Shown here in pieces: positions 6,655 through 60,500 of a stretch of 64,000 nt of DNA. The position numbers and the translations under genes were made by a program. Every line of letters starts with the position of its first letter. The stretch's first letter is position 1. Location: NCBI GenBank assembly GCA_000091205.1, contig AP006502.2; one strand, written 5' to 3'. The notes below the pieces were generated by a model. That model was not told the origin of the DNA. It ran no database searches and saw nothing but the letters and a program-made list of their open reading frames with translations. The DNA is from Cyanidioschyzon merolae (lineage: Eukaryota).

Positions 6655-6687
<33 letters not shown>

Positions 6688-6901: not shown

Positions 6902-9900
6902 TCAGAGACTCACGGTGGCACTGGTTCGAACCAGGATACTGCTGCTGCTGCTGCTGCTGCTGCTCATCTCGTCGAACATCGAGTCATCGGTGTGAACACC
7001 AGCTGACACCGCCTTGCGATGCGCTCGTGTCGGAGACGATAACGCCGCCTGTCCCGATGTATACGCCGCTGCCGCTGCTCCTCGTGTTCTTTGCGGATGC
7101 ATGAGGTCACTGGAACGCCTACCCTCGCGTCCTGGACGCAGCAACTCGTGTTCAGCGGCAAAGTGGCCACGACGGTAGCGGCCGCCACGGCAACCAATAC
7201 GATGAATATCCCGGCGATCGACGTGCCGCCTCGACAACACCGCTGCTGCCTTTCCTTGTGCATCTTCTTCATCCTCCTTTGCCTCTATCTCTATCTGAAT
7301 CGCTGCCTCTGCCTCTGTCGTTGACGTGTGCATCGAACGTCCACCACTCTTGTCGCCAAGGCGGCGGGGCGATCGACGGCGCCTGCCCTGTGCGTTGAAA
7401 CAAGGATCGGCACACAAGATGCCGTCTTCACCCGTATCGACGTCTTCTTCGTCTTCGTCTTCACGATGGTGACGATCACGACCATCATCGGTGTCGCCGA
7501 ATGTAATCATCCAGGGGATATCGCCCAAGATACCGTTTCCAAAAGGCCCGAGGTCGTGTTCCAGTGGATCACCGGTCCACTGCCACCACTTGGGATCGAT
7601 CACGATATCGCCGTCACCGAGATCATCCGACTCCGGCCTGAACGGTGACCACAGACCACTCGACTCGTCCGAAGACGATAGTCGTAGTAGTTCTCGTTCA
7701 TAGGCATCGATCTGTCGCATACGCTGGAGATGACGATAAGCAAATGCCAACTGGCCCAGGTTACGCGAACGCTTTCGACGCTGCTGCCTGCGACAGGATG
7801 TGCGTCGCCCGCTACGCACTCGTTCCGTTGCTTCGGTGAGCGCTGTGGCGGAAAGCATCGGAGGCTCGGAGCGTACGCTCTCGCGACGATGTCGCTTAGG
7901 ATGCCTGCGTCGAGCCTCGCGATACACTGGTGACGCATTCTCGATATGGTCAGCACCACAATTACGATCATCGTCATCGTCATCAGTCAAGCTTTTCGGG
8001 GTTGCAGCTCCAGCACCGTGTCGTACCTGCGCTGCACGCCATGTTGCTGCTGCTCTTGGCGGTGGCGAGGGCAGGGCATGCTCACACGTCGCTACTGCCG
8101 TTGCCACTGCCACTGCTGCATGATCGAGGTGTTCACGCACGCTACCAGCATCCGGTGGTTGTGCTGTATCACCGCCAGCTTGCACTGGTATTGGCGTTCG
8201 TTCAAGCGCTCCAGTCGGTTCCGTTCGTGCGGAAACGGTACCAGATGCAGGCATCGTGCCAATGGGCGCACTCAACGCATCTTGTACCGTTGACGGTGCA
8301 ACGTGCGGCACGTGCTCATCAGAAACACCGGTTACCGATACGTCGCGAGTGTCATCATCGGATATCTTTGTCGAATCTCTTCCGGGCGCTGATCTCTCCT
8401 CAGCGGATTGCAGCGGTGTTGCCGCGGGATCCCTCACCGTCGCTGCGAGATGTCGGCCTACTGCTTCGATAATGGTGTCGACGCTGACCATGTTGGCAGC
8501 AGGGTCGGTAACAGCCTCGGAAGATGCGGCACGCTGATCAGCGACCTGCGCAGTGCTCAGTACGGGATCCGTTCCGGGATGCTCACCAGGTGTTGGGGCA
8601 GCTGCAGCTAGCGCCGCTCCAATATGTCTCCCCGGAACAACCAGGTATCGTCGATGAGCGGCCGAGGACGCACTTGCACCTAACGAAGGCGCCTGTGGCG
8701 TGACGTCCACGCGTAAATCCGCTGTTGAAACTGCCTCCACGAATGCCTCTGGCGTTGCTTCCGTTTCCTGACGCAGTGCCTGGTGTGGTATAAGCAACAC
8801 GAGGCCGTGTGTCGTTTTGATCGAGGTAATCGTAATGCGCTGATCACCGGCGTACGCTGGCAGCGTCGCAGTCGGTCCAATCGTTTCCGCTGATACCGGT
8901 CGATACTCTTCGATGCTGCCAAAGAGCACGCCTTCTGCCTCACTGGAGCTGGATACATCACTCTCCGCGGAGGATACGTCCGCTGCCGCATCGCTGCGCG
9001 ACAGCGCATGCTCAACATCCGTCACAGAGGCACAGTCACTGCACGAACAAGTGATGTCGAGGTGCTTGTACAGCTCGACCTCTGCTTCCAGACACTGGCC
9101 ACAGCTGCACGACACGCCATGCGCGGCGATGCACCGGTACTCGACGCCGTTCGAGAACATCGCTGTATCGCCAGTGATGCCTGCAACCAGACCGTCTGCA
9201 ACCTGGGGAATTGCTGCCAGGTCTGGCAGCAAGAGTCGAGATGCTTCATCGTCAAGGAGCAGGGCCCGTGCGTCCGTGTTCTCATTCTGGATCACTGTCC
9301 CGGAGGATGGAGCCCCGCGCTCGGGAGCACTCGCTGCATTGGGACCGGATGCACCAGCTGCGGGGCCGAGTTTGTCACCCAGCTGCTGAATCGTAGCCAT
9401 TCCAGCAAGCGCAGCACGATTCGGGACTGCAGTGGACCCGGTTCCATGCCCCAGGTTCAGATCCTGGCCAGTGTAGACTTCGCAATCCGGATGCCTCAGG
9501 AGATAGGCTTTCAGATTTTTGGCCAACGGCGACGCATTTCCCGAAATTTTCAGCTTCTTCACTCGATTCCATATGGGTACGTGCTCGCCGAGGCCTCCGC
9601 TCCCACTGCGCGCATCAAAAGAGCGTAGACGGCCCTGTTCATCGAGATCTTGGCCACAATATACTTCACAATTGGTGTACTTTGCTAAGTATTTGCGCAG
9701 GTTTTTCGCCAAGGGTGCAGCGTTGCCGCTGATTTTGCGCAACTCTTCGCGGTTCCAAATAGCGACCCGATCCTTCGCCCGATACTTGATGGTTTCTTGA
9801 TTCTGGGGAATGGACACTACGAGAATGACGGGATCCGCGAGATCACCATTCGAACCGGGTTTCTCTACAAAGCGCACATTCTGCTGGACGAGCGATGACG

Positions 9901-24038: not shown

Positions 24039-24066
<28 letters not shown>
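24038..24066. repeat. (GGCA)7 tetranucleotide microsatellite
   Basis: The sequence 'ggcaggcaggcaggcaggcaggcaggcagg' sits in an intergenic region between bS16 and LSm2. Confidence 0.9.
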
Positions 24067-24069
<3 letters not shown>

Positions 24070-25255: not shown

Positions 25256-26917
25256 GTGTCCGAGCAGATGCAACTTGACAATGGTTCGATTGCGACGTCG
25301 CTGGTGCACGTTGCGACACCAGCAGCAGAGCACGTGTACTGCGTAGCCTGCCAGTGGTCTCCGGCGGACGGGGTCGCTGCTTCAGACGCCAACAACGGCC
25401 ACTCTGCTCCCAGTAAAGCGCTTTCGCCCGAGGCACTGCTCGAAAAGAGACGGCAGCACTACCGCTCTGACTGGCACCGCGTCAACCTGAAGCGTCGCAC
25501 CGCTCAACTACCACCTCTATCGGAGGCTGAGTTCACGGAACGGTGCAGGAACTGGGAAAGCGGCGGTGAAACCGTTCAGATGGATTTCGGCGGACTCGAG
25601 GACGAGAACACCTCAAGCAGCGAGGAACCCTGGAGCAGCTACAGCGTGAAAGTACCTGTGGGATCTGCGCTACCTGAGGACGCCCTGTTCTCCGCCGCTC
25701 GATTTGCGAGGTCGTCAGCCGTGAACGGCGAGCGTCAACCCAGCAGCCGCCGTGTGGCATGCATCTGGTGTCTGAAAGAGTTTTCCAGTGAGAAAGCCCT
25801 GCAACAACACGAGCGTACCGCGAGGCATCGAGAGAAGCTGCGAGAACTTGGCATCCCAGAATCTGATGAGCAGCACCAGCACCAGAAGCAGCAGCAGCAG
25901 CAGCAGCAGCTCATCTCCGGTGCATCAAAGGAAACGAGTCTCGAAACTGCAGACCTGGACGCTTGGCTCGCTGAGCGCATGCAAGAAGCGCGTCCCCTTG
26001 ATATCCACGAATGTCTTTTCTGTAACCACAAGGTTGCCGTTGACGAGAATGTTTCAGAACAGGAGCGCAGCGGCGCTCTCCTTGCAAATCTCCGCCACAT
26101 GGCCAAAGAGCACTCATTCTTTGTGCCCTATATAGAGTACTGCTATGATCTTGCCGGACTCGTACGATACCTGGGAGTCAAGGTCGGTCTTGGCTACTGT
26201 TGCGTGTTCGGGGGAAGGGTCGTGCCGCTCTCGCAAGACACTACGGACTCCGCGGAGCAGCTGTTCGAGCGTCGTGCGGAGGTATTCAGCAGCTTACAGG
26301 CCTGTCGAAATCATATGCGAGATGCTGGGCACTGCCGGTTGCCCGATTTTGATCAGGAGGAGGTTTGGGATGAGTATCAGGAATTCTACAGTTTTACCCC
26401 AGTACGAGCAGACGCGCTGCTGTCGTCTGCCGCGGATGCGAGCGAAGCGCTTTCTCCAGGCACGCCACATGAGGCTGCGGGTGAGGCTGAGTCTGTCGCT
26501 CTTGCGCCATGGGAAAAGTGGGTCTCGGTCGCCGAGGCACCGAGATCTACGCACCCACCAGATGAAGAAGTTGTTGGCCTTCAACTAGGTGCGAGTGGAC
26601 GAACTATTGCACACCGGTCTCTCTGGCGATACTATCGCCAGCGTGTGCATGATCATCACCGCACGCAGCTACCTGTCTGCATTGCTCGACAAGAGCGCCA
26701 GCAGATGGTGCTGGCTTATCAGGAGCTCGCCCACACGGCTGCAATCGGCTTCACTGGACCCGCAGCGTCGCAGCCGTATCCCAGTATTCCACCACGTCGA
26801 GTGCTTGAGCGCTGGCGACGCGACCAGCTCGCACTGGCTGAACGGAACGCAGCGACGCGCCGCGGCCGGGCAGCACGTTCATCCATAGCGGTGCTGAACT
26901 CTGGCTATCGTGGCTAG
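25256..26917 (+). CDS. REI1: Cytoplasmic pre-60S ribosome biogenesis factor REI1/ZNF622 homologue (C2H2 zinc fingers)
   Basis: The first zinc finger plus 'HYRSDWHRVNLKRRTAQLPPLSEAEF' (~25465-25530) matches REI1 'SDWHRYNLKRR'. A second pair, 'CIWCLKEFSSEKALQQHERTARH' and 'CLFCNHK...HSFFVPYIEYCYDLAGLVRYLGVKVGLGYCCVFGG', matches the REI1 C-terminal finger 'CLFC...HGFFIP..EYLVDLEGL..YLGEKV..G..CLYC'. A polyQ run comes from (CAG)8 at ~25886-25909. Confidence 0.85.
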   Translation: MSEQMQLDNGSIATSLVHVATPAAEHVYCVACQWSPADGVAASDANNGHSAPSKALSPEALLEKRRQHYRSDWHRVNLKRRTAQLPPLSEAEFTERCRNWESGGETVQMDFGGLEDENTSSSEEPWSSYSVKVPVGSALPEDALFSAARFARSSAVNGERQPSSRRVACIWCLKEFSSEKALQQHERTARHREKLRELGIPESDEQHQHQKQQQQQQQLISGASKETSLETADLDAWLAERMQEARPLDIHECLFCNHKVAVDENVSEQERSGALLANLRHMAKEHSFFVPYIEYCYDLAGLVRYLGVKVGLGYCCVFGGRVVPLSQDTTDSAEQLFERRAEVFSSLQACRNHMRDAGHCRLPDFDQEEVWDEYQEFYSFTPVRADALLSSAADASEALSPGTPHEAAGEAESVALAPWEKWVSVAEAPRSTHPPDEEVVGLQLGASGRTIAHRSLWRYYRQRVHDHHRTQLPVCIARQERQQMVLAYQELAHTAAIGFTGPAASQPYPSIPPRRVLERWRRDQLALAERNAATRRGRAARSSIAVLNSGYRG

Positions 26918-28540: not shown

Positions 28541-29158
28541 TCACTGACTCCTGAAAAGTACACTCCGAGTGAGCCTTTCGGACGTTCGCGACTTCAATAA
28601 TAACGAAGCACACAGAGCATGCTTCTCTGCTCGATTAGGTACCGAGCGCGTTGATGTGGCCCTGCTGTCATCATTCCACCTGTTGTTAAACGTACTTGCG
28701 TCCATTACGCTGGATTTCCAACGATATCTAGCTATGGGAAGGTCAGCTCGCATAGCATCTTCTGTCTGGTGTACCAATCCTCGCGGGAATGTTTGATAGA
28801 AGAATTCCAGAGGGATATAGGCAGCTGGCAGCTCTGCGTCTGGAACTGTCACGAACAGTTGCATGACGAGATATGTCACGCCGAGGAAGGCTAAGCGAGA
28901 CTTTCTCGAATAAGAACCTATGCGATCGTCAATGAAGGCGAGCATGAATCGACGCCAAGGATACGTAAGATTCGTCTGCTGATCTGGGAGCGTAGAATTG
29001 GTGTTTGATGTAAGAGAAGACACCTTGAATGGGAACGAACCATGGAGAACGGGCTCGTACGACGATAAGCTCAACGCCAAGCTCAGTTGCGTACTTTTTG
29101 ACCGCTTTTGATTGATGAAAAGCGACATTTTCAGAGAGAGCAGCCACGAAGCGTACAT
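28541..29158 (-). CDS. Hypothetical ORF; possible downstream part of a frame-disrupted PlsC-like acyltransferase gene (very tentative)
   Basis: 205-aa ORF in an AT-richer region. ORFs just upstream on the same strand carry acyltransferase-like motifs, 'AGNQETDSIL' at ~29760-29790 and 'KPGTRQSTGAGRSIL' at ~29660-29695, but they lie in different frames and too close together. Confidence 0.2.
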   Translation of the reverse strand: MYASWLLSLKMSLFINQKRSKSTQLSLALSLSSYEPVLHGSFPFKVSSLTSNTNSTLPDQQTNLTYPWRRFMLAFIDDRIGSYSRKSRLAFLGVTYLVMQLFVTVPDAELPAAYIPLEFFYQTFPRGLVHQTEDAMRADLPIARYRWKSSVMDASTFNNRWNDDSRATSTRSVPNRAEKHALCASLLLKSRTSERLTRSVLFRSQ

Positions 29159-30831
29159 CGCTGAAGAATGAGGTGTCGAATGATCCGGTCTGTTTGGCGA
29201 TTTCTAGGCGACCAAACGATTGATTCGCCGCTGCCACTGGTAGTGTCGCCGTGCTCGCTCGTCGCTGCTTTACGAACAGCGGCTTGTTTACACGTTTGAG
29301 GGCCCAAATACACAGGTCTGCCATTTCTCCGAAATAAAATCTCCCCGAGAAAGACGTACACACGTCAGTCCTGTAATACGTGTTGCAGTTTTACTATGAA
29401 ATAGACGGCGCTGCTCAACGCGCAACCGCCTTCCATGGAAGCGTCTTTTCTTCTCCATCCATGTCTTTTTCTTTCCTTTTGTATCAACGGCACGGCAACT
29501 GTGCATCTTGAGGCTTCTTCTACAGTATTTCTTCGTGAGCATGCAGATTAGAATGGCTTGCTCCGGAGCCAATTGTGTTGATCGAGCTGGAGAAACTCTG
29601 TTTTGTGCGAAAGGCGTTCTGGATACGGACTGCAAGAAGGATGGATCTTCCCGCACCTGTTGATTGCCGAGTACCTGGCTTGGACAGGAGAGGTCTTTTT
29701 CGCACGCTAGTAGAGACACCATCAAGCTAGTCCGCGAACGTTCTCCAATGTGCAGGATAGAATCCGTTTCTTGATTACCTGCCAGAAAAACAAACGCAAA
29801 CAATTAAGGTGTATTGCGACGGGAATTCCAGAATTCACTGCTCTGCATGTAACGATAGGGGGTCGCTGTTGTGCCAACGGACGTACTGCCAACGCCTGTT
29901 GGGCCACGAAGCACACCTACGACCTAGGGGCTACGCAACGCTTCTAGCAAGGGACGTTCGGGTCCCTCGCATTCGCCCCAGGCACCGAGCGGCTCGTCAG
30001 AATGTCAAAGGGCTGCTTCTTGCAAACTCCGCCCTCATCGCGCATAGGTGTAGTGTGCGCTCATGAAGAGTTGGAACAACACAGAATCGCGTCTGTGACA
30101 CTGTTAATTCTGACGCACTTAGTATTGCCCTGCCGACTAACGGAGCTGGAGTGCAACTGTCTCCTTGGTGCCTAGCAACTTCTGGGCGTCACTATGGACG
30201 CCAACTGGTTACCGCTCACGCCCAGTGCAGCGCTGGCATCCGAAGTAGCCCCGCCCGAGCCGCTCCAATATCATGGCCAGTAGACAGACCCGCGAGGTCC
30301 AGGTACAAGTCTCGCGTATTGGACGAGCCCAATGGGCCAGTGCTCGGAGCGCCTCCGCAGTTGCAGGTGCCGAGCAAAGGCCTGTGTCCAGAGACGGCTA
30401 CGCGTTCTCCAAGCGACCGCGAAGATAGCGCCGGACACTGAAACTGTGTCCTGGTCGCCACGGACCTCCAGTGTGACTGCACTTGCCGATTGACAGACAG
30501 CTCGAGCCGATGTAGCAAACAGGCAGAGAATGGCCTTTTGGTCTCTCTTTATGCGTTCGATCACCGGTGCGTCACCGAATCCATCAGGCCCCTATTCCTG
30601 CGAAGCATACCTGTCTGGAACAGTTGGAACGGTTAGTCGTCTGCATGGAAAGTAAACCCGGTTTCCTAATCACGACTACGACTCATACAGCCCGTGTTAC
30701 CTGGCTCTATATAACCGCCTCATCGAAGTCAATGCACGACTCGTTGGCTAAGTACGGTTGGCAGCGGACCCGTTGCACTGCACCAGGCACAGCGCTACAT
30801 GCTACCGTCCAGGCACATGCGCATTCGTGCA

Positions 30832-31665
30832 ATGGACACACCGCGCTCTACACACTGCTCCATCACCGCTGGCGAGTAAGGAGTGGCTGTGGGGAGCGCC
30901 GCCGGGGAGATTCATGCTAGATCGCGACATGGCGTGCAGTGGACACACCGCGCTCTACACACTGCTCCATCACCGCTGGCGAATAAGGAGAGCTGTGGCG
31001 AGCGCCGCCCCCGCCGCCGCCACCGGGGAGATTCATGCTAGATCGCGACTGGCGTGCAATGGACACACCGCGCTCTACACACTGCTCCATCACCGCTGGC
31101 GAATAAGGAGTGGCTGTGGGGAGCGCCGCCCCCGCCGCCGCCACCGGGGAGATTCATGCTAGATCGCGACGGGCGTGCAATGGACACACCGCGCTCTACA
31201 CACTGCTCCATCACCGCTGGCGAATAAGGAGTGGCTGTGGGGAGCGCCGCCCCCGCCGCCGCCACCGGGGAGATTCATGCTAGATCGCGACGGGCGTGCA
31301 ATGGACACACCGCGCTCTACACACTGCTCCATCACCGCTGGCGAGTAAGGAGTGGCTGTGGCGAGCGCCGCCCCCCGCCGCCGCCACCGGGGAGATTCAT
31401 GCTAGATCGCGACATGGCGTGCAATGGACACACCGCGCTCTACACACTGCTCCATCACCGCTGGCGAGTAAGGAGTGGCTGTGGCGAGCGCCGCCCCCGC
31501 CGCCGCCACCGGGGAGATTCATGCTAGATCGCGACATGGCGTGCAATGGACACACCGCGCTCTACACACTGCTCCATCACCGCTGGCGAGTAAGGAGTGG
31601 CTGTGGCGAGCGCCGCCCCCCGCCGCCGCCACCGGGGAGATTCATGCTAGATCGCGACATGGCGT
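30832..31665. repeat. Tandem minisatellite of ~7 units, each about 109-123 bp
   Basis: Unit 'tggacacaccgcgctctacacactgctccatcaccgctggcga(g/a)taaggag(t/a)(g/)gctgtgg(g/c)gagcgccgcc(ccc)gccgccgccaccggggagattcatgctagatcgcgac(at/gg)gcgtgcaa'. It starts at ~30832, 30940, 31060, 31181, 31302, 31425 and 31547, then decays at ~31665. The length varies at the (CCG)n core. The array ends ~100 bp upstream of the GWD ATG. Confidence 0.9.
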
Positions 31666-31764
31666 CGTGTCGCATCGATCTGCGCCAACAGATCACGTGC
31701 GGTTCGCACGCTACCGTCAAGCGTTTTCCCTCGCCGCACAGCGCATTCCACAGAGCCAACGAGT

Positions 31765-34700
31765 ATGAGCGATCAACCAAGCGTATCCGTTAAAGTGCCT
31801 CTTTATGAGAAGATCTACCAGTTAGATGGGTTCATTGGCGACGAGGAGCGAAACGCTTTACAACTTCCTGAAGGCGTCGACGAAGCTGGACTCTTCGTCA
31901 CTGTCTACGTTTCCCGAGAGAGCACGTACCCCGGTGATGCACCAGCTGGTGGTGCGACTCCTCACGAGAACACAGGAGATCCGAGCGTTGCTCGCGAGGA
32001 TATTGTAGACTGGCGTAAAGCGCGTATCGTTTGTCGTTTTCTGCTCGTGCTTCTCAGCAGAGAGGAGGTACGTCATCTTGATCAGTTGGGGGCGTCTGTG
32101 CCCAAGTCGTTGAAGGAGCGCATCGCCGAGCGCAATCGCTTTGAGTGGTCTCGTATTTTGCAAAATCGTCCGACGTACTTGCACTGGGGGGTAGCCAGGG
32201 ATCACCCTGATGAGTGGACGCTACCCGAGGCGAAAACGTTTCCCCCGGGAACGATTCGTTTCGATAAGATCGCTGTACGCACCGAGTTTCCCGCCGAGCA
32301 CCCAAGGATTCGCATCAACGTACCTTTCTTCGAATCTGGCAACGAGTTGCGCACGATCCGAGGAATCAAGGCAGTAGTCTACCGAGCAAAAGACCACAAA
32401 TACTTTAAAGACGGTAGAAGAGATATTTTCGTGCCTGTCTGGGACTCTGTGCGGACCTGGGTCATCGACGGCGCAGGCATCGAAGAGAACGTTGCAGAGC
32501 TTTCGTTGACGGAATCTGCTTTTCGGACGGCATTAGGTGTTTCACGCAGTGATTCGTACATGTCGCTTTCACGGGAAACATCCCCGGGACCGGACGCCTC
32601 TGGTAGCGGGCGCTCAGCAGTGCGCCGGTCGATCTCGCTGAGCTCGGTTCGTAAGCTCAAGTCCTCAGCATCTCTTGATCGATTGGTGAAAGCCGGGGCG
32701 CCACAGGATCGCTCATTAAAGGCAGTGCGCAGGATCCATACAGCGGCGACCGTTCTTTTCGAAGAACTGTTTGGGGGCGTCGGTCGCGGCGGCAGCGGCC
32801 ACCTTGATGTTGTCGTGGAGGAAATGGAGCCCCAGTCCGAGTACCACATTCATATGGCGACAGATATCAGCGGATTGGCACTTCACTGGGGAGTCAGCCG
32901 CAAGAAACCAGGTCAGTGGGTGCTTCCGCGTCGAGACTGGTGGCCCGCTGGCGTTACCAGCCAAGTCGATCACAAGGCTGTGCGCAGTGAGTTCGAAGCT
33001 GATCAGGATAACCCGGGCGTATGGCGCCTAGATATGTGCTTCCGCCGCGAATCCGAAGATGACATTGCAAACGGAGAGTCTTGGTTGCCGTCTGCACTAG
33101 TATTTGTTCTGTATCAAGCAGAGTACAATTTTTGGTCGAACTATCATAATGATAATTTTGTTGTACCAGTCGCACCGCCGGCGCCCTCCGTTCTTGAGGA
33201 CGTATACGCTTCGTATTTACACACGTTGCAGGAGCAGGAAAAGATGCTGGGCGATCGCGCCCAGGGCGAGGAACCAGAAACCCTGCCTGTTGGCACAATC
33301 CTGGGTCTGGAGAGACGCTCGCTCGACGACGATGGCGAGACAGTTATTTGTTTCTCCGTCGAAGAGGATGGCTTCGCGCTCCGAGTTCATGCTGACTTGT
33401 CGCCGCTCGTCATCCATTGGGGGATCGCGCGGCATCGGGTCACTGAGTTTCTGCAACCCGACGAAAGTCTCGCGGTTGAAACCAAGGGTCGGACCTACCG
33501 CTTCGAAAACAAAGCCATGCGGACCGAATTCGTGCCGGATGAGCATCATCAGGGCACCTACTATGCGGAAATCCACCTGAAGAAGGAGCATGCACCGCGC
33601 GCAGTCACCTTTGTGCTCTTTAATCCCGAGCTGAATCGTTGGTACCGCGCTGAGGGCGGCGGCAACTTTGTGCTACGAATGGATCTGGAGTCGTTCTCGC
33701 AGCTCCCAGGAAGTGTTGGCAAACACGAAGACGTCGCCCAGAAGATCATCGAGGTTGAGGTCGAGTACGGATCCTGGACGCTCATGCACCGTTACAATTT
33801 GGCGAATGATATCCTACGGAACAGCATGTCTGCTTTGGATGCGGATCTTTTGCAGATAGTCTTTGTGTGGTTACGGTATAGCTTCCTGCGGCAGCTGGAC
33901 TGGCAGCGCTCCTACAACACGCAACCGCGCCTGTTAGCGCACGCTCAGGAGCAGCTCACGACGACGCTAGCTCAGGTCTTTGTCAGTCGTCCAGATCTCC
34001 GGCTCTGGGTGCGCCTGTGTCTCTCGATGCTGGGCCGAGGCGGAGGCAACGGCCAGCGAATTCGAGACGACATCCTGCGGATCATGCACAAGCATCACAT
34101 ACCGGAAACGCCGGGTCATTTTATGGAACAGTGGCACCAAAAGCTGCACAATAATACGACTCCAGACGACGTGGCAATCTGTGAGAGTTATCTCGCATTT
34201 CTACGATCTAATGGCGACAAGAACGTCTTCTATGAGACGCTGCAAAAGCACGGCGTAACGAAAGAACGTTTGGCATCTTATGAACGTCCGATATTCGCGG
34301 AGGTGCAAACCTATCCCTGTGACACCAACAGCCTTATACACGACTTTGAGGAGTACCTTCACGTTCTGAAGAGCGTGCACTCCGGAACAGACCTGGCGGT
34401 TGTTCTGGACTATGCGCGCTGGACGCTTGATCAGGAGCTCATTAGCAAGGTTGAGCATATCCAGTCGGTGCGAGCGGAGCTCATGGCGAGTCCACAGGGG
34501 GCGCTCGAGTTCTCCTTCTTGATTGCTGAGGCGAGGAAGATGCTCCAGAGTACCTTAGAGCACGTCGAAGATCCAACGCGCGTTCGGGATATGCTGTTCC
34601 TTGACCTGGCGCTTGACGAGCTCGCTCGCTTGGCCGTCGAGAGTCAGGGGCTTGCCGACTACGTTGCCGAGACCGATGTCCAAAAAGCCTGCAATCTTTT

Positions 34701-36483
34701 GGTGGTTCTAGCACAGCACGTTGGATGGTCTATGCTATCCAGTGCGTTCCTGGAAACCAGTTATGATCTTGCGGCGCTGGTGTACGGTATTCAGTCGGAC
34801 GTACAATTGCAGGAGCCAGATTTCGGTCTCCGCCTCTATGCGACAATGGAGCGCCTCATGGACTGCGTCGGGCATGATGTGGTGGAACGGCTCCACCACG
34901 ACGTGCAACCCAAGGCGGTGTACATTGGCGTTGGCTGCAACATCGACCAAAAGGTTGTGACGCTTTTCTCGGAAGAGCTCATTCGGGGTCAGGCGGCCTT
35001 TGCACTGGCCCAAGTCCTTCGCCCGCTCATGAGGAATATTCGCAAGCAAGCTAATCTCGGAAATTGGCAGGTAATTAGCCCGGGATCATGCACTGGTCAA
35101 GGAGCGGTATTTGACGAGCTCCTGTCCATTCAGTACAAGACGTTTGCCGAGCCCACGGTAGCGTTTGTGCGCCGCATATCCGGAGAGGAGGAGATTCCCA
35201 CCGGCATGGTCGGCCTCATCACTACCGACACACTCGACATACTCTCGCATTGTGCGGTTCGGGCACGCAACGAGCATGTCGTCTTGGCCTGTTGTTTCTC
35301 CGAGGAGCTTTTTGATCAGCTCACAGAGCGATTCCGTGGTGCCTGGGTCGCCGTGCGCTCCCTAACCGATGGTTCTCTGGATTTCCAACCGATACAGGAG
35401 GGAGCTGGACGCACCACGGCGGCGGATACGACGGATGGAGCATCCGAACACGCCCAACGTCGAGCGGTATCCATGCGCTCCGATATCGAGAAAAAGCCAG
35501 TGAAATCGGTGCTTGGTATTGCGCAGTTCAACACGCAGCGTGGAGGTTCCAAGTCGAACTCGCTTGCCAAACTCATCCGCGTGATACCGGACTGGATTCA
35601 CATCCCTCCGTGCGCGTTGCTACCCTTTGGAGTTTGCGAGCAGGTGCTTGCAGAGGCACAGAATTCTGACGTGGGGGAGCGTTTCCAGCAGCTCATGGCG
35701 GAACTGGACGGAAAGGGGCCTACCGATGACTGCAGCGCCTTGCTCGCACGTTTGCGGCACTGTGTTCGGCAACTTGCACCGAGTGATACCTTCATGAAGG
35801 AGTTGCAACAGGTTCTCCAGCACGAAGGTTTCCACTCCATTGACAACCTCGATATGAGGCGCGCCTGGGAGTGTATCCTAGATGTTTGGGCATCCAAATT
35901 CAACGACCGGGCGTTTCTGGCGTTGCGCAAAGCAGGCGCTGTTGGGAAAACCTCATTGTCCTCGCTCTACATGGCAGTTTTGGTCCAGGAGGTGGTCCCT
36001 GCGGACTATGCCTTCGTCCTGCATACGAAGAATCCGTTCACTGGGGAGCCATCAGAGATCTATGGTGAATTGGTTCATGGTCTGGGTGAAGTGCTTGTTG
36101 GCAACTACCCAGGCCGTGCGCTCGGATTTACGTACTCGAAAAGCACGGGTCAAGTGCGCGTCTGCAACTACCCCAGCAAGACCAAAGCGCTTATTCCACG
36201 TGGTGGCTTGATTTTTCGCAGTGACTCCAACGGAGAGGACCTCGAGGACTTTGCTGGAGCTGGGCTCTTTGATTCCATCCTTATGCAACCAGCCGAAGAA
36301 GTTGTCGTTCGTTACCGTGAACTCAAAATTCTGCAGGACAAAGCTTACCTGGAACGTATCCTCTCAAAAATAGGAAAATGTGGGATTGAAATTGAGAGCA
36401 ATTGTGGTAACAAACCGCAGGATATTGAAGGTTGCATTTGCGGCGAGGATGTGTACGTCGTTCAATCACGTGACCAAGTCTAG
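31765..36483 (+). CDS. GWD: Alpha-glucan, water dikinase (GWD / R1 protein; starch phosphorylation), 1572 aa, single exon
   Basis: The C-terminal PEP-utilising/nucleotide-binding domain 'YMAVLVQEVVPADYAFVLHTKNPFTGEPSEIYGELVHGLGEVLVGNYPGRALGFTYSKS' closely matches plant GWD 'MAVLVQE(I/V).ADYAFVIHTTNPSSGD.SEIYAEVV.GLGETLVGAYPGRALSF'. The phospho-His motif 'LDILSHCAVRARNEHVVLACCF' (~35241-35290) matches 'LSHVSVRARN'. The N-terminal half has three CBM45-like 'HWG(V/I)(A/S)R...W.LP' segments. Confidence 0.9.
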   Translation: MSDQPSVSVKVPLYEKIYQLDGFIGDEERNALQLPEGVDEAGLFVTVYVSRESTYPGDAPAGGATPHENTGDPSVAREDIVDWRKARIVCRFLLVLLSREEVRHLDQLGASVPKSLKERIAERNRFEWSRILQNRPTYLHWGVARDHPDEWTLPEAKTFPPGTIRFDKIAVRTEFPAEHPRIRINVPFFESGNELRTIRGIKAVVYRAKDHKYFKDGRRDIFVPVWDSVRTWVIDGAGIEENVAELSLTESAFRTALGVSRSDSYMSLSRETSPGPDASGSGRSAVRRSISLSSVRKLKSSASLDRLVKAGAPQDRSLKAVRRIHTAATVLFEELFGGVGRGGSGHLDVVVEEMEPQSEYHIHMATDISGLALHWGVSRKKPGQWVLPRRDWWPAGVTSQVDHKAVRSEFEADQDNPGVWRLDMCFRRESEDDIANGESWLPSALVFVLYQAEYNFWSNYHNDNFVVPVAPPAPSVLEDVYASYLHTLQEQEKMLGDRAQGEEPETLPVGTILGLERRSLDDDGETVICFSVEEDGFALRVHADLSPLVIHWGIARHRVTEFLQPDESLAVETKGRTYRFENKAMRTEFVPDEHHQGTYYAEIHLKKEHAPRAVTFVLFNPELNRWYRAEGGGNFVLRMDLESFSQLPGSVGKHEDVAQKIIEVEVEYGSWTLMHRYNLANDILRNSMSALDADLLQIVFVWLRYSFLRQLDWQRSYNTQPRLLAHAQEQLTTTLAQVFVSRPDLRLWVRLCLSMLGRGGGNGQRIRDDILRIMHKHHIPETPGHFMEQWHQKLHNNTTPDDVAICESYLAFLRSNGDKNVFYETLQKHGVTKERLASYERPIFAEVQTYPCDTNSLIHDFEEYLHVLKSVHSGTDLAVVLDYARWTLDQELISKVEHIQSVRAELMASPQGALEFSFLIAEARKMLQSTLEHVEDPTRVRDMLFLDLALDELARLAVESQGLADYVAETDVQKACNLLVVLAQHVGWSMLSSAFLETSYDLAALVYGIQSDVQLQEPDFGLRLYATMERLMDCVGHDVVERLHHDVQPKAVYIGVGCNIDQKVVTLFSEELIRGQAAFALAQVLRPLMRNIRKQANLGNWQVISPGSCTGQGAVFDELLSIQYKTFAEPTVAFVRRISGEEEIPTGMVGLITTDTLDILSHCAVRARNEHVVLACCFSEELFDQLTERFRGAWVAVRSLTDGSLDFQPIQEGAGRTTAADTTDGASEHAQRRAVSMRSDIEKKPVKSVLGIAQFNTQRGGSKSNSLAKLIRVIPDWIHIPPCALLPFGVCEQVLAEAQNSDVGERFQQLMAELDGKGPTDDCSALLARLRHCVRQLAPSDTFMKELQQVLQHEGFHSIDNLDMRRAWECILDVWASKFNDRAFLALRKAGAVGKTSLSSLYMAVLVQEVVPADYAFVLHTKNPFTGEPSEIYGELVHGLGEVLVGNYPGRALGFTYSKSTGQVRVCNYPSKTKALIPRGGLIFRSDSNGEDLEDFAGAGLFDSILMQPAEEVVVRYRELKILQDKAYLERILSKIGKCGIEIESNCGNKPQDIEGCICGEDVYVVQSRDQV

Positions 36484-39400
36484 ATATCGGTCGTTGAATG
36501 CGAAGAATTTAAAGTCTGGGATGCATTACCCGAGACCAGCGGACGCCGCTGGCAAGTGCTCGGTTTCTGCTTGCGCTGCGAGCGCTGCCCAGTGCCGAAT
36601 GTCGTGGCCAGCAGGGCGACTTTCGCGATGCGGCATCGACAGGCGCTCCGAGTGCTCAGTCATATCGAAGCAGGGGACCTCATGACCGGTCAGCTGTTGC
36701 CCAGGAAAACCGTTGTCGGTGAAAATGTACGAGGCGTCCTGCTTGCACGATTGCTGAACCGTACCATACCAGTGCATCGCTCCAGACGAGAAGCCGATGT
36801 GCGCTTGCTGGAGCTTTGCTTTTCCTTGGTGGCAAGTTTTCCGCGTTTCAGCATCATGCGTATACGGTGTATGGAATGGTTCACGTGAAGCTTTCACCTG
36901 CGGCAAACCCGATGGACGCTTCTGACGCACGAGACGTCTCCGGATGTGAATTGACGTGTTCGAGCTTCGGTGCAGCGCGTGTTTGCACACATCGTTGCCG
37001 ATGGCATCACTGCATAGCAAACCTGGTACCGTCGATTGCTTCGTCATCTGATATTCGGTCTGCGTACTGTGGATTATCTCGTGGATCCGGCCCTGTTGCA
37101 TTCCCTTTTTTGTTGTAGCAGTATCAGCGGGTACTCGTGCTTGTGGGGCGTGTTCTTCGTCCTTGACGCGTGCATTGGAATCGAACCCAATCGATTCCTT
37201 TATTGGTTGCTTGCTCTCGTCGACGGAGCAGGAGTGCAGGAATCGCGCGCTAGAGCACATCCAGCGCTACAGGCTACCACTGAACGACGCAACTTGTCAC
37301 CCGCGTCCTTTTTCAACGCACTGAGCAAGTTGGCGAATCCACGATCCTGGTCACCGTACAGCCAAAAGCCCCAGCGTCTCGTGCTCGATCTCGTGTACGC
37401 TTGGTGATGATCGATGACATGATCCGTATTGACGCACATTGGTGCTCAGAAGCGTAGCATCCATAGCTACAGTTCCCGCTCTTCTGAGCCAGGAAGGTTA
37501 GGGAACAGAACGCACGGGGTTCGCCTCATGAAGCGCTCAACATTGACCCAGGTATGTTTTCGTTCTCGTGCGATAGGTTTGATACTTTTTGCATTTACGC
37601 TTTAGATAATGCGATAGCGGACTTTCAGCACAGACAGTTCACGGTATCCGGGAAGGCGTTTGTGCGAATCTCGGATCCGACCATCATGCTAGCTAGCATC
37701 TTCAGAAGCGAGCATCACCTTTCGTACGAATGCTAGATCGAACGATTTCATAGTAACGAGGACAGCTGGTAACCGTTCGACCGGAGCGCCCGATTCATTG
37801 TTGCATACCGGTACGCGTCTAGGCGAGGGAAGCTGAACGAGCCTTCCCCGAAGTCAGAGGCTACTCGATCATGAACCGCATTCGGCGTCTTACTCTTTGG
37901 AGGATTCTCCACGCTGGTATGTTTTCGTAAAAACGCCTTGACAACGACATCAGATTGATGTTTCTGCTGCAGCCGTTTCTCCCGCTTGTCCATCCTCGTC
38001 CACTATTTGAAAGAATCGCTCTCTTCTTTTCGTAATGGTTTATTGCACCTTCCCGTTACTTTACAGGGTGACATATTCGTGGTCGCAGTACGCTATATTC
38101 ATGGTGTCCTCCGGGTTCAAGTGCATTTAGTGGACGATGGGAATGAATACCGCCTTTTCTATGCTTGTGAAGACGATGCCACAGGTACCATTTCGTCACC
38201 GTCGACGTCACGAGCACAACCGTGCAGAAAATCACGCCTTGCCGCTCGCTCCCGCACACTGTCAGAAGAGCAACAGAGCATTTCAGGACTGGTGAAGGTA
38301 GCGAACGACTCGTCATTTGATCTGAGCGCGTCACCATCGCGTTTGGTAGCGGAGCAGACGCCTTGGATTTGGATTGAGTCAATGAGAATAGGCTGCCGCT
38401 ATGAGCAGCTCAACGCCATTCGCAGCTGCATGCTCCTCGACCGCCCTTGGGTGGTTCAGAACGACGTTACCTAGAAGCACCGCAGAAGAACGTGCCAAAA
38501 GACAAGTCACGACGAGCTTCGTTGAGGGCTGGGCATGTTGCACCATCACGTCTGTTGGGCGGTCTGTAGGCGACCGACGCTCAACATCGCCCCGGGTGCT
38601 GATGCTGTCGTCATGCTCGATTGTCTCTTCTTGATGAGCAGCGTTTAACCGGTTTTCGAGTTCGCAAATTCAGATATGCGTTTTCTCGCGAATAAGGTCT
38701 CATCGAATGAGACGAATACGCGCCCCTTCTGAAGTAAGCGTTCGCGTTTCAGTACGGAATCGATGTGTGTATTGTTCAGCGGGCGACGGTCTCGCATCCA
38801 AGTGTGGTTCTCTGTTCGTCCGTCCACGCTTCCTCATGATCGGCCGCATGAACAGTACGGAAACTGAACATATCGTGGCTACTTTCGAAGTATACATTTG
38901 AGAACAACTGGATTGAAATGGATGAACGGGAAGGCAAATGTCTAGACTGAGTTTTATAGCATCTGGTCCAGGTGCACGACGTTCAGCACCAACGCTACGA
39001 GGCCGGCGATTTATCCACCTGCTGACTATTGATTAATCCAATGATGGGAGCAACGCTGTTTTCGGAAGCCAGTACCGACAAGATTTACGCTTCATGTGCC
39101 GGCACTCTAAGCTATAAGACGCAGTCCGTTCATTGGATAACTGCGAGAAAGAAACACAGGAACAAAAGATTCATACCGATATCGGTATTCCTGATTGTAC
39201 TGCTTTGCGTCTAGCGAAAGACGCAAACTCGGATTAGCCCCAAAATGTGATTCCTGCGAGATTCCAGATCTATATCCGCGTCGGTTTCAGAATAAATACG
39301 ACTGTTTGCGATGCATTTGCCAAGCGAGTGCTTACCGAGCCTTCGTCGATAAGCATGTTCGAGACTAGAAGCACAGCCATAAAGTCCTACAGATGCGCAA

Positions 39401-50132: not shown

Positions 50133-50162
<30 letters not shown>
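50133..50162. repeat. (GCT)10 microsatellite adjacent to an alternating purine-pyrimidine (GC/AT) tract
   Basis: 'gctgctgctgctgctgctgctgctgctgct' is preceded at ~50040-50120 by 'catgcatgg...gcatgcatgcatgcgtgcgcgcgcacgtgcgtgtatacacgcacg'. Confidence 0.85.
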
Positions 50163-50165
<3 letters not shown>

Positions 50166-57509: not shown

Positions 57510-60500
57510 TTGCACGCTGCCCTCATGGCTGATCGTGGTACCTCCGTCTCCTCGTTCGAGTCGGAGACATTTGGAGACAGCACGCTAAGAGGCAGCAGCG
57601 AACTCAATAATGGACAGGAACGAGGCACGCGCACACGTCGAAGCAGTGCACGTCACCGCAGTCGTTTGTCGAGTTTCTTTGCTCCACCACAGATTCGAAG
57701 CGATCCAAAGGAAGCCAAGTTCCTCCTTGAGACGCTATCCTCGAAGCAGGTAACTTGGCAAATTCTCAACATATGCAGTGCAATCGTGCTCTCCGTCACC
57801 TACACGCTAGCAATGAGTCTGTTTGCACGCCGTTTCGAAGCGGCACTCCCGGCACTCAACCTCGTTGACCGCGTCGTCGTGTACTGCTTTTGCGTGCTCC
57901 AGCTTACTTTCACGATCGTCTACTTTTTGCGTCTCTATCGGTATGGATGGATCCGTTGCACCTTCGAAATGCGCAGCTGCTTCCTACAAGGTCTATTTAT
58001 ATTCTTTACGATGAATATTATAGGCAATATTGCACGAACGATATCGGAAGCGAGCGGCACCACGATCGCCATTCTCTATGTCTCCGACCTGGTCTGGCAA
58101 TGGTTCTGGATATTTGGTTTTTATGGACACGCCATGGCTATTCTACGACTCTATCGTGATATGAAGGATCGCCACACGTTTCTAGAACGAAACCGCGTGG
58201 TATTTGGTCTCTGTTTGATCATCGCCGCCGTGGAGACAGCCATTTGCGGCTGGTCTCGAACGACGTTAGGACTCACCTGGCCGGGCATGTTGGTTCAGTT
58301 CGCTATGCGTGGACACCAACAACAAGCGGCCTACTCGCTTACGTTCGCGCTCGTGGTTACCATGCGCATTTTCCTCGATGGCTGGATTGCCATGGAGCTC
58401 TACCGCGCCTTCCGAGTGCTCCAGCAGCTGCCGTATACCTGTTGTCATCACAAACAAATGGGTGCTCGTTTCTACCGTGTCTTTACTGCGATATCCTATA
58501 TATTCCTGATTGCAAACGATACCATCGCAGTGGGCCTGGTACCATTACCAAGCGCGAACGCGTCCCTCGATGGCGTACCGTTGCGGTTGCTGGGTATTGC
58601 ACGATTCAATGGTGGTGCCTTCGCGATGCTCTTTACATGGTCGGTGCTCCTGCTCTATGTGCATTTACCTCCGACAGTGCTGGGTGTTTGGCTGCCCTGG
58701 ATCGTTGCGCTGGCTCCGGACCCAGCTGCATATCAAGAAAAGCGAGCCCCACAAAGGAGCGTTTCCTCCGAGTGGGAGTTGTCCGCGCACAGCGCCAGCC
58801 AGGCGGCACCGTGGCCAGCGGACGCACTGGATGCAGAGCGAGAGCTGCGCAAAGCAAACCTCTACTACCAGACTGAGCAGGAAGCACTGCGAAATGGAGA
58901 CAGCTGGCTCTCGCGCTCACTTGTCCTCGAGACGCATGTTTTGATCTTCAACATGGCGTACCTGTCCTATCGACCGTGGCATGACCCGCATATGTATGCA
59001 GAGATGTTCAATCATTATGGTGTGGGCGAAATGGACCCCCTGCAAGCACGAGTCGTGCGGCATATCTCCAGCGCCGTTACAGATGTACATGTGCTCGTCA
59101 TTGACTTGGCGGATAGGATTGTGGTGAGCTTTCGCGGTACCAAAAGCACCAGAAATTTACGCACAGATATGAATGTCCGACGGGTTCCTCTCGAGGAGCA
59201 CCTGCATGCACGTGAATGTCCGCAAATACAGGATACGTGGCGCTTGAGCGCCTGCAGCAAACACGGTCAACGCGGGTCGTTGCGGGAGTCACCGGCGAAA
59301 GCGACTGTCGACGGTACAACTCGAATGCCTCGTACGACGAATGCTGTAAGCACCACTGCCTTGGCTGCCGGGCGTAGCGGCACCTCGGCTGCGACTTGTT
59401 CGCAAATACCGCCCGCAACACATAGCAAGCGCGAAATAGATTCGACTAGGAAGCACCAGGCATCAGTGGAGGCCTTTGCCAAGGACGATTCGGATATAGA
59501 GCGCGGTCTTGATGATGCCCTGTCACAGGAACTCGGTGTGGATCCTGGAGGCCGTTTTGCACATCGTCGATGGTGGCAGTATATGCTGAGCGTACGCGGG
59601 ATCCGTTCCCTGCGCTTTGGTGATTTTCGCGCTCAGGCTGGTGACGATTTTTCGTATCTCATAGGGCGACGAGTGCCTACAATGGTGCACGATGGATTTT
59701 TGCACGCCTATTTATCCGTGCGTGAAGAGTTAATGGAGACGCTGAAACCGCTTGTTGCAAAGCCCTCGAGCACTGCACCAACTGCAGTGGATGCGGCTTG
59801 CGCGCCCTTGAGCAGCACCTGCGGCGATGCCACTTGTGGTGTCGCTACCAGCCTGGATAGGCGCGTGCAACCATCGAACCGCTTTCCCGAGGTGTCCAGT
59901 GCGGATATTCATGGCGGTTGTGAACACGGGCAGCAGCAACAGCAGCTGAGCTTAGCGGGTACAGAGACCGCAGCGCGGTGTCGAAGCGAAACTGCTACAG
60001 CAGCAGCAGCAGCAGCAGCAGCAGATGCGAGCGAAGCGCAACCGTGTAGTGCGATGAACTCCTTGGATAGTGCATCTTGCAACCACAAACCGGTGATCTT
60101 TTGAGGTCACTCTCTCGGCGGGGCTCTGGCAAGCATCGCTGCCCTCGATATGACGTGTTTTGAGAATTCACAGTCGTTGCGTCTGTCATCGGATCTGGTG
60201 ATGTGTGTGACTTTTGGGTCGCCTCGAGTCGGGAATCGCGCTTTCGCTGCAGCGTTCCAGCGACATGTGCCGTTTTCATTCCGATGGGCAGCGGTCGGCG
60301 ATATCGGGACGAAACTGCCTTTCTGGGGTTATGAGCATGTTCCGGTCAAGATGATGCTGGATCCGTTGTTGGGGAGCATTCTCATGGATCCCTCGATCAT
60401 CGAGGAGTCCATGGTAGCGTTCCGGAACGCTTTGGATGCGCACCTGCGACCCGCATATATCCAGGGGTTTGAGCGCTGGTGTCGGCGCTACCACCCCCGC

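Follow-up and report, generated by a model that had tools for sequence, protein, structure and literature searches.

Introduction

The human INS variable number of tandem repeats (VNTR) and the MAOA uVNTR are promoter repeats that tune expression. Unstable repeats within promoters are said to tune expression in Saccharomyces as well, as described by Vinces et al. in 2009. An array that resembles them lies directly upstream of CmGWD, the gene of the starch-phosphorylating enzyme alpha-glucan water dikinase (GWD), in a 64,000-nt stretch of contig AP006502.2 (hereafter the window, to which all coordinates refer) from the red alga Cyanidioschyzon merolae 10D, a model organism with a nearly repeat-free, fully finished genome of 16.5 Mb. 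As in the yeast and human promoter VNTRs, GC-rich, slippage-prone, non-coding units stand head to tail upstream of a gene at a distance of no more than a few hundred bp, and copy number appears to vary among near-identical genomes. In contrast to most yeast promoter repeats, the C. merolae unit is long (~121 bp). The array also differs from known promoter VNTRs in that its host genome is almost repeat-free, its place with respect to the transcription start is inferred, and its effect on expression is putative.

Classical GC-rich minisatellites have units of 10 to 100+ bp and change by unequal exchange and gene conversion. The array shares with them a high G+C content, identical adjacent units, variants arranged in a mosaic over units and strains, and an internal microsatellite-like core. 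It differs from them in being a single-locus array with no dispersed core-sharing family and in not being subtelomeric; moreover, 10D is haploid, and meiotic mechanisms are not established for it. Leaders of the GCN4 type, which carry upstream open reading frames (uORFs) and repress translation, offer another comparison. If transcribed, the array would add 16 upstream ATGs (uATGs), including an open reading frame (ORF) that overlaps the main start codon. Unlike in such leaders, the number and frame of the uATGs vary by strain, and the dominant 5' end apparently lies downstream of the array.

A synthetic array of 12 ZFHD1 binding sites placed upstream of a core promoter drives transcription in C. 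merolae (PMC12770821). The natural and synthetic arrays both present tandem copies directly upstream of a core promoter, but the synthetic one has a known factor, and the natural unit has ten times the length of one binding site. Since the 12-copy array works in C. merolae, a tandem-site architecture is at least competent there. CmGWD controls starch degradation under TOR signaling, according to a 2025 paper that used heterologous promoters only (PMC11986951). No mention of the array, of a mapped CmGWD transcription start, or of work on the native promoter was found in the literature. Taken as a whole, the analysis describes the array as most likely a recent, locus-specific minisatellite (VNTR) of an ordinary kind, situated most likely in promoter DNA and with a putative function.

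Structure and Copy Number of the Array

The array occupies positions 30833-31665 on the plus strand and consists of seven contiguous head-to-tail units of 107-123 bp, whose borders were set by the anchor TGGACACACC (Table 1). Tandem Repeats Finder (TRF) called 30897-31665 with a period of 121, 6.3 copies, 97% matches, 0% indels, and a score of 1422. This is the one long-period array in the window; the remaining TRF rows are tri- or tetranucleotide runs or short repeats of two to three copies. The G+C content of the array is 66%, against 55% for the window. An earlier reading made from the letters of the window (the sequence-only reading) had described seven ~121-bp units upstream of GWD, ending ~100 bp before its ATG and varying in a (CCG)n core and a few substitutions. 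TRF and anchor cutting bear out this description, with the end measured at 99 bp before the ATG at 31765 and with a 1-nt indel as a further source of variation. The two strings that it quoted as possible factor-binding segments occur once per unit, in exactly seven copies on the plus strand; the rest of the window lacks them on both strands. Its observation of the array is correct in all details, far beyond chance.

The units differ in the C-run/(GCC)n core, at about six point positions, and in the 1-nt indel (GACATGG, GACTGG, or GACGGG). Units 3 and 4 are the same, and units 5-7 are distinguished by just one C in the C-run; such identical adjacent units form the block pattern that is expected from recent unequal exchange within the array. 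In an alignment that drew on 13 sequences and comprised 16 complete and 7 partial units, the core proved to be the source of most length variation among units and strains. The 36-nt block has no variant in any complete unit of any strain examined, and the 22-nt block has one substitution (in L029) over the 16 complete units. At a divergence of ~1%, the constancy of these two blocks is a weak sign of constraint. The unit is several-fold richer in variable sites (~9 substitution columns and three indel sites per ~120 nt) than the flank (18 per 1000 nt).

Copy number was compared among strains using the 90% protein cluster of CmGWD, whose 29 members derive from metagenomes and SRA assemblies; 28 contigs around them were examined. 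The flanks of the C. merolae-like contigs are ~99% identical to 10D. The 1 kb left of the array carries 10-13 substitutions and no indels, with 18 segregating sites over five haplotypes. The GWD coding sequence diverges from that of 10D by 0.2-0.3%, and the proteins are ~99.7% identical. Between these flanks, three contigs have one unit and two contigs have two, against seven in 10D (Table 1). The two-unit contigs come from separate projects and share one pair of non-identical units, set in haplotypes that differ slightly. At least four long DNA-like contigs break at the array, three at its right edge (L009, L019, and L020, at -105; negative positions count from the GWD ATG unless stated otherwise) and one inside it (L010, at -269), as usually happens when short-read assemblers meet a multi-copy repeat. 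The tandem unit-to-unit junction GGCGTGCAATGGACAC is also present in the independent assemblies L001, L008, and L010; therefore, the tandem arrangement is no artefact of the 10D assembly. The last units in one sampling series represent at least three haplotypes. The 99-bp right flank is identical in six of the seven other strains compared, and L008 differs at one base (-8).

From these sequences, the locus appears to behave as a VNTR with 1, 2, two or more, and 7 units. The sequence-only reading had proposed that copy number varies and that unit number be compared between strains. This variation appears to be borne out, with the caveat that the low counts come from short-read assemblies, in which repeats may collapse. 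The array has direct contiguous units, a copy number that apparently differs at one locus, and no maintained frame, which are the features of a minisatellite or VNTR. Because the flanks are only ~1% diverged and the coding sequences 0.2-0.3%, the change in copy number appears to be recent.

Position of the Array Relative to the Transcript

The DNA or RNA nature of the contigs was judged from the contigs themselves. Many GWD contigs are evidently transcriptome assemblies, probably of Lemonade Creek origin; in the Lemonade Creek project, a "C. merolae 10D-like isolate" was sequenced as poly-A and RiboMinus metatranscriptomes (PMC11662350). Several of these public contigs have chimeric 5' ends. 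L030 (1-1065) begins with EF-1alpha mRNA (Pfam GTP_EFTU, 2e-56) fused to GWD at about -17, L016 (1-206) with the coding sequence of ribosomal protein uL6 fused at -14, and L021 (1-25) with the Illumina adapter GTTCAGACGTGTGCTCTTCCGATCT fused at -15. The first GWD codons are joined to themselves in L014 (1-95, at -10) and L015 (1-42). Three unrelated partners are thus joined to GWD within 4 nt, and one of them is an adapter, whose fusion needs many fragments with the same end; the RNA thus seems to have one discrete, dominant 5' end, at about -15.

These contig junctions suggest that the main GWD mRNA starts near -15, ~85 bp downstream of the array. The array would then extend from about -85 to -915 relative to the start site, as upstream promoter DNA outside the main mRNA, and the 99-bp right flank probably holds the core promoter and a short 5' untranslated region (UTR). 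The assignment of the array to promoter DNA is ranked above its assignment to a 5' leader with moderate confidence. A promoter or 5'UTR role had been suggested in the sequence-only reading; the position leans toward the promoter, and the 5'UTR is less favored, with several contigs entering the last unit.

The coding potential of the array bears on the same question. There are 16 uATGs in the 10D array and none in the 99-bp right flank. The last four array ATGs in 10D open an ORF that ends at 31793 and overlaps the GWD ATG out of frame; from the ATG at 31644, an ORF of 49 codons overlaps the GWD ATG in this way. In strains with the GACTGG variant, the last-unit ATG is in frame with GWD. The JGI gene call for L010 (150-4988, P0017, 1612 amino acids) begins at this last-unit ATG, which is in frame owing to GACTGG, and is probably a 40-codon over-extension.

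Origin and Distribution

The array is probably a young, single-locus minisatellite (VNTR) that arose by tandem amplification of a ~115-123-bp stretch upstream of CmGWD. The single-unit alleles expose both boundaries, with ...TTCGT/GCAATGGACAC on the left and the unit end ...GACATGGCGT/CGTGTCG on the right, while the internal junctions read ...GGCGT/GCAATGG. Since the duplication breakpoints share only a 3-4-nt CGT(G) microhomology, the first duplication may have occurred by replication slippage or by microhomology-mediated duplication. Unequal sister-chromatid exchange would then have expanded or contracted the array, a step that fits the identity of adjoining units (3 and 4; nearly so 5, 6, and 7), and the (GCC)n/C-run core within each unit would slip further. 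The direction of unit-number change is not polarizable, as the outgroups lack the unit sequence.

The unit appears to be specific to the C. merolae lineage among the cyanidiophytes compared. GWD of Cyanidiococcus yangmingshanensis (L007) is 76% identical in amino acids to CmGWD, and that of another cyanidiophyte lineage (L002-L006) is 74% identical. Sensitive blastn of the unit and its flanks against the GWD upstream regions of L007 and the L002/L003 lineage returned nothing below E=0.08. A 20-mer of the unit, GATTCATGCTAGATCGCGAC, was found in three contigs of the JGI metagenome collection, all three at the GWD locus. The sequence-only reading had proposed a search for the unit upstream of other starch or circadian genes; such a wider distribution found no support, as the unit is absent elsewhere in the window and the three metagenome matches are at GWD.

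Tandem repetition near GWD was also seen in a relative. In L007, positions 8055-8396 (VWRR01000013.1) contain a 116-bp repeat in 2.9 copies with 83% matches, with the zf-C2H2 gene on one side and a small ORF of the minus strand on the other. The syntenic neighborhood is the same, and the intergenic spacer is a different one, ~1.6 kb upstream of the annotated GWD start. This repeat and the C. merolae unit share no sequence similarity, and the former would be an independent minisatellite of similar period. In the L002-L006 lineage, five independent assemblies (JGI, NCBI GCA_041825655.1, and Logan) start 1218-1315 nt upstream of the GWD orthologue, within ~100 nt of each other. These shared contig ends hint at an unassembled repeat there; none is visible in the assembled sequence.

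Competing Explanations

Several points weigh against the reading of the array as a young single-locus VNTR in promoter DNA. Its "single locus" status is based on the 64-kb window and three metagenomes. The one- and two-unit contigs are short-read assemblies, which are able to collapse tandem repeats, and the single-unit sequences resemble mosaics of variants from other units. The count of seven comes from the 10D sequence only, which is a finished, gap-free Sanger/bacterial artificial chromosome (BAC) assembly (PMC1955436). The transcription start is deduced from assembly artefacts, in a species in which, as of late 2025, no endogenous promoter had been dissected and no TATA box or start site mapped (PMC12770821). 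At least 12 contigs, most of them probably transcriptome contigs, reach -58 to -201: some end at -58, -75, -79, -79, -83, -92, and -92, and six end inside the last unit, at -129, -151, -165, -177, -184, and -201. L029 covers the entire upstream region and may be a transcriptome contig. Some transcripts may therefore start in or upstream of the array, or these ends may reflect DNA carry-over. The same contigs lead to the explanation that the array lies within a long 5' leader, with transcription starting upstream (for example, ~30 bp after the TATATAA at 30708) or in each unit, so that uATGs and uORFs throttle GWD translation and copy number sets its efficiency. Apparent transcriptome contigs that enter the array (L015, L017, L018, L024, L028, and L032), the span of L029, the conserved TATATAA 120 bp to the left, and the 16 uATGs of 10D, the last four opening an ORF over the GWD ATG, are all consistent with such a leader. 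However, the sample type of the array-entering contigs is undocumented, so residual DNA or antisense RNA could account for them, and three independent contigs are joined to foreign sequence, in one case an adapter, within 4 nt (-14 to -17). Furthermore, the last-unit ATG flips frame between strains (GACATGG against GACTGG), and strains whose GWD is nearly identical would have as few as 2 or as many as 16 uATGs; both points are hard to fit to a tuned uORF mechanism. A leader that contains the array is therefore considered distinctly unlikely. It is very improbable that the seven-unit array was itself created by the 10D assembly through over-expansion or mis-joining at a locus of one or two units, as the presence of just one or two units in the other assemblies across the locus might suggest. 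The 10D sequence is finished and gap-free, its unit-distinguishing variants follow an ordered pattern, and the unit-to-unit junctions recur in independent data. In other samples, four DNA contigs end at the array or within it, as they would at a multi-copy repeat. In addition, primers 1001 bp apart across the array worked on 10D DNA for a knock-out arm, with the product size unreported (PMC11986951). The sequence-only reading had named an assembly-collapse artefact as a way in which it could fail, and for 10D this is judged unlikely.

If the array is promoter DNA, the question is what it does to GWD. Strains with one, two, and seven units appear to coexist with ~99.7% identical GWD; therefore, array length would not be needed for GWD function. 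The effect of the array on GWD, if any, is most likely quantitative, and the array would at most tune GWD expression. Tuning could act through putative sites multiplied in the invariant blocks, or through far-upstream DNA being pushed up to ~730 bp further from the core promoter. A further, unlikely explanation is that the array is neutral junk, a slippage-prone repeat in a 2.6-kb spacer with no measurable effect on GWD or on the neighboring gene. The coexistence of the three copy numbers fits neutrality, as do the lack of conservation outside the C. merolae lineage, the absence of motif enrichment elsewhere in the window, and the several-fold higher polymorphism density in the unit. This explanation overlaps with the young-minisatellite reading and differs from it only in the claim of zero effect; yet the last unit ends ~85 bp from the proposed start site, where changes usually matter, and the 36-nt and 22-nt blocks are invariant or nearly so over 16 complete units, which is weak evidence given the short divergence time. 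At the other extreme, the array can be imagined as an evolvable "volume knob" for starch degradation. Its units would carry sites or a weak start for a light-, TOR-, or nutrient-responsive factor, and unit number (1 to 7+) would be adaptive in hot-spring populations and set GWD dosage, with uORF-loaded leaders adding a translational layer. This proposal is speculative and has a low probability.

Other Classes Considered

Other classes were tried, and were rejected or found no support. A clustered regularly interspaced short palindromic repeats (CRISPR) array does not fit, as the units abut without unique spacers and the host is a eukaryote; the sequence-only reading had stated that the array is not CRISPR-like, and in this it was right. 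A coding repeat was rejected because unit lengths are not multiples of three, a polymorphic 1-nt indel shifts the frame, and the frame shifts between units. The array is non-coding and adjoins GWD, as previously proposed. A cluster of RNA genes (snoRNA, 5S rRNA, or tRNA) was rejected on Rfam, ARAGORN, and fold tests. Rfam at E<=10 gave only a chance mir-885 match to the unit (16.6 bits against a gathering score of 66), ARAGORN found no tRNA in the window, and the unit folded no better than dinucleotide shuffles (z = +1.17 and -0.35 on the two strands). A dispersed repeat or transposable element is unsupported, with no second copy of the unit in the 64-kb window and no inverted repeats flanking the array. 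The unit had no match in viral and bacterial/archaeal collections. A conserved ancestral promoter element gave no signal in the GWD upstream regions of Cyanidiococcus and of the 74%-identity lineage. The sub-motifs CAYGCTAS... and GCTACCGTC were not enriched over shuffles elsewhere in the window, a 64-kb search having low power; the CAYGCTAS... pattern was badly designed and fails to match the units themselves. A bacterial-type promoter and terminator scan was uninformative, the host being a eukaryote.

Features and Neighboring Genes

The features of the locus are collected in Table 1. The ORF at 31765-36483 has the GWD-specific Pfam domains Ig_N_CWD1 (8e-43), GWD1_pHisD (8e-30), and PPDK_N (1e-13), and its protein is an exact match to BAM83464.1/XP_005539500.1, "starch associated protein R1" of C. 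merolae 10D. The spacer upstream of GWD extends 2.6 kb to a minus-strand ORF of 205 amino acids (28541-29158, no Pfam match), beyond which the zf-C2H2 gene is located further upstream. Either a long-leader transcript or the divergent neighbor may use the TATATAA motif in this spacer as a core element. The left flank of the array weakly resembles the 3' end of the unit (CATGCTA). Seven of the 18 segregating sites of the left flank fall within 240 bp (29862-30101, -971 to -732 from the array), and each of the seven sets 10D apart from the other four haplotypes; substitutions private to 10D are thus clustered.

Table 1. Coordinates of the array, its flanks, the CmGWD gene, and the alleles compared.
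Feature	Position	Strand	Basis or remark
CmGWD (CMT547C), alpha-glucan water dikinase gene, 1572 amino acids, no introns	31765..36483	+	Pfam and exact protein match
Unit starts	30833, 30940, 31060, 31181, 31302, 31425, 31547	+	Anchor cutting
Unit lengths, units 1-6: 107, 120, 121, 121, 123, 122 bp	Unit 7 ends at 31665		
36-nt block TGGACACACCGCGCTCTACACACTGCTCCATCACCGC, unit 1 example	30833..30868	+	Alignment of units
Hypervariable core CGCCG-C5-6-(GCC)2-4, plus ACC in 10D, unit 2 example	31004..31026	+	
Near-invariant 22-nt block GAGATTCATGCTAGATCGCGAC, final copy	31637..31658	+	Its ATG is at 31644
Left flank, ends ...TTCGT/GCAATGG	30790..30832	+	Seen with both boundaries in single-unit alleles
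Right flank, unique 99 bp between array and GWD ATG	31666..31764	+	Contains no ATG
Suggested main mRNA 5' end, -17 to -14, A at -15 in CCACAGAG (~31750)	31748..31751	+	Contig fusions
ATCGAT palindrome	31674-31679		Right flank; identical in every strain examined
G-box CACGTG	31694-31699		Right flank; identical in every strain examined
TATATAA	30708..30714	+	~120 bp left of array; conserved in all strains
One unit between 10D flanks			L011 (18.8 kb), L013 (42 kb), L029 (2.2 kb)
Two units between 10D flanks			L001 (ENA, 20.9 kb), L008 (JGI, 27.5 kb)
Seven units			10D

Downstream, GWD and a minus-strand ORF of 244 amino acids (36526-37260, no Pfam match) are convergent, with stop codons 42 nt apart (36484-36525). 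Since transcriptome contigs cross both, the 3' ends of the two transcripts would overlap. Five independent transcriptome-like contigs (L022, L026, L021, L017, and L025) have their 3' ends clustered at 38072-38293, within a mechanical ORF at 37986-38474 on the plus strand. A transcript boundary may lie at this cluster, perhaps where a minus-strand ORF of 81 amino acids (37748-37993) has its 5' end, and the cluster also suggests that the 162-amino acid ORF at 37986-38474 may be no gene. Six perfect or near-perfect microsatellites were observed in the window: CAG x10.7 (6655-6686), CTG x8.7 (6939-6964), GGCA x7.5 (24039-24068), AGC x14 (25869-25910), GCT x10.3 (50133-50163), and CAG x9 (59998-60024). 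The AGC x14 run lies inside the zf-C2H2 ORF (25256-26917), and the CAG x10.7 and CTG x8.7 runs flank the junction of two long ORFs.

Practical and Biological Significance

The array has practical consequences for work on this gene, which has recently become a focus of studies on TOR-controlled starch degradation. The delta-CmGWD knock-out (PMC11986951) was made with F1/R1 primers that fall at 30764 and 31745-31764 in the window. The published upstream arm is therefore -1001..-1 and ~83% tandem repeat, while the methods state "-2,500 to -1,000". Since this arm is mostly repeat, out-of-register recombination could alter unit number in transformants. Short-read assemblies break or collapse at the array, and the chimeric GWD contigs, being transcriptome assemblies, call for caution against their use as genomic sequence. 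The array could also serve as a VNTR marker to type Cyanidioschyzon strains.

The apparent copy-number variation beside the GWD start would be a rare natural polymorphism of promoter architecture in an organism in which no endogenous promoter has been dissected. If copy number tunes GWD expression, the locus would exemplify regulatory evolvability in simple form in a minimal eukaryote; otherwise, it would be an instance of ordinary repeat instability.

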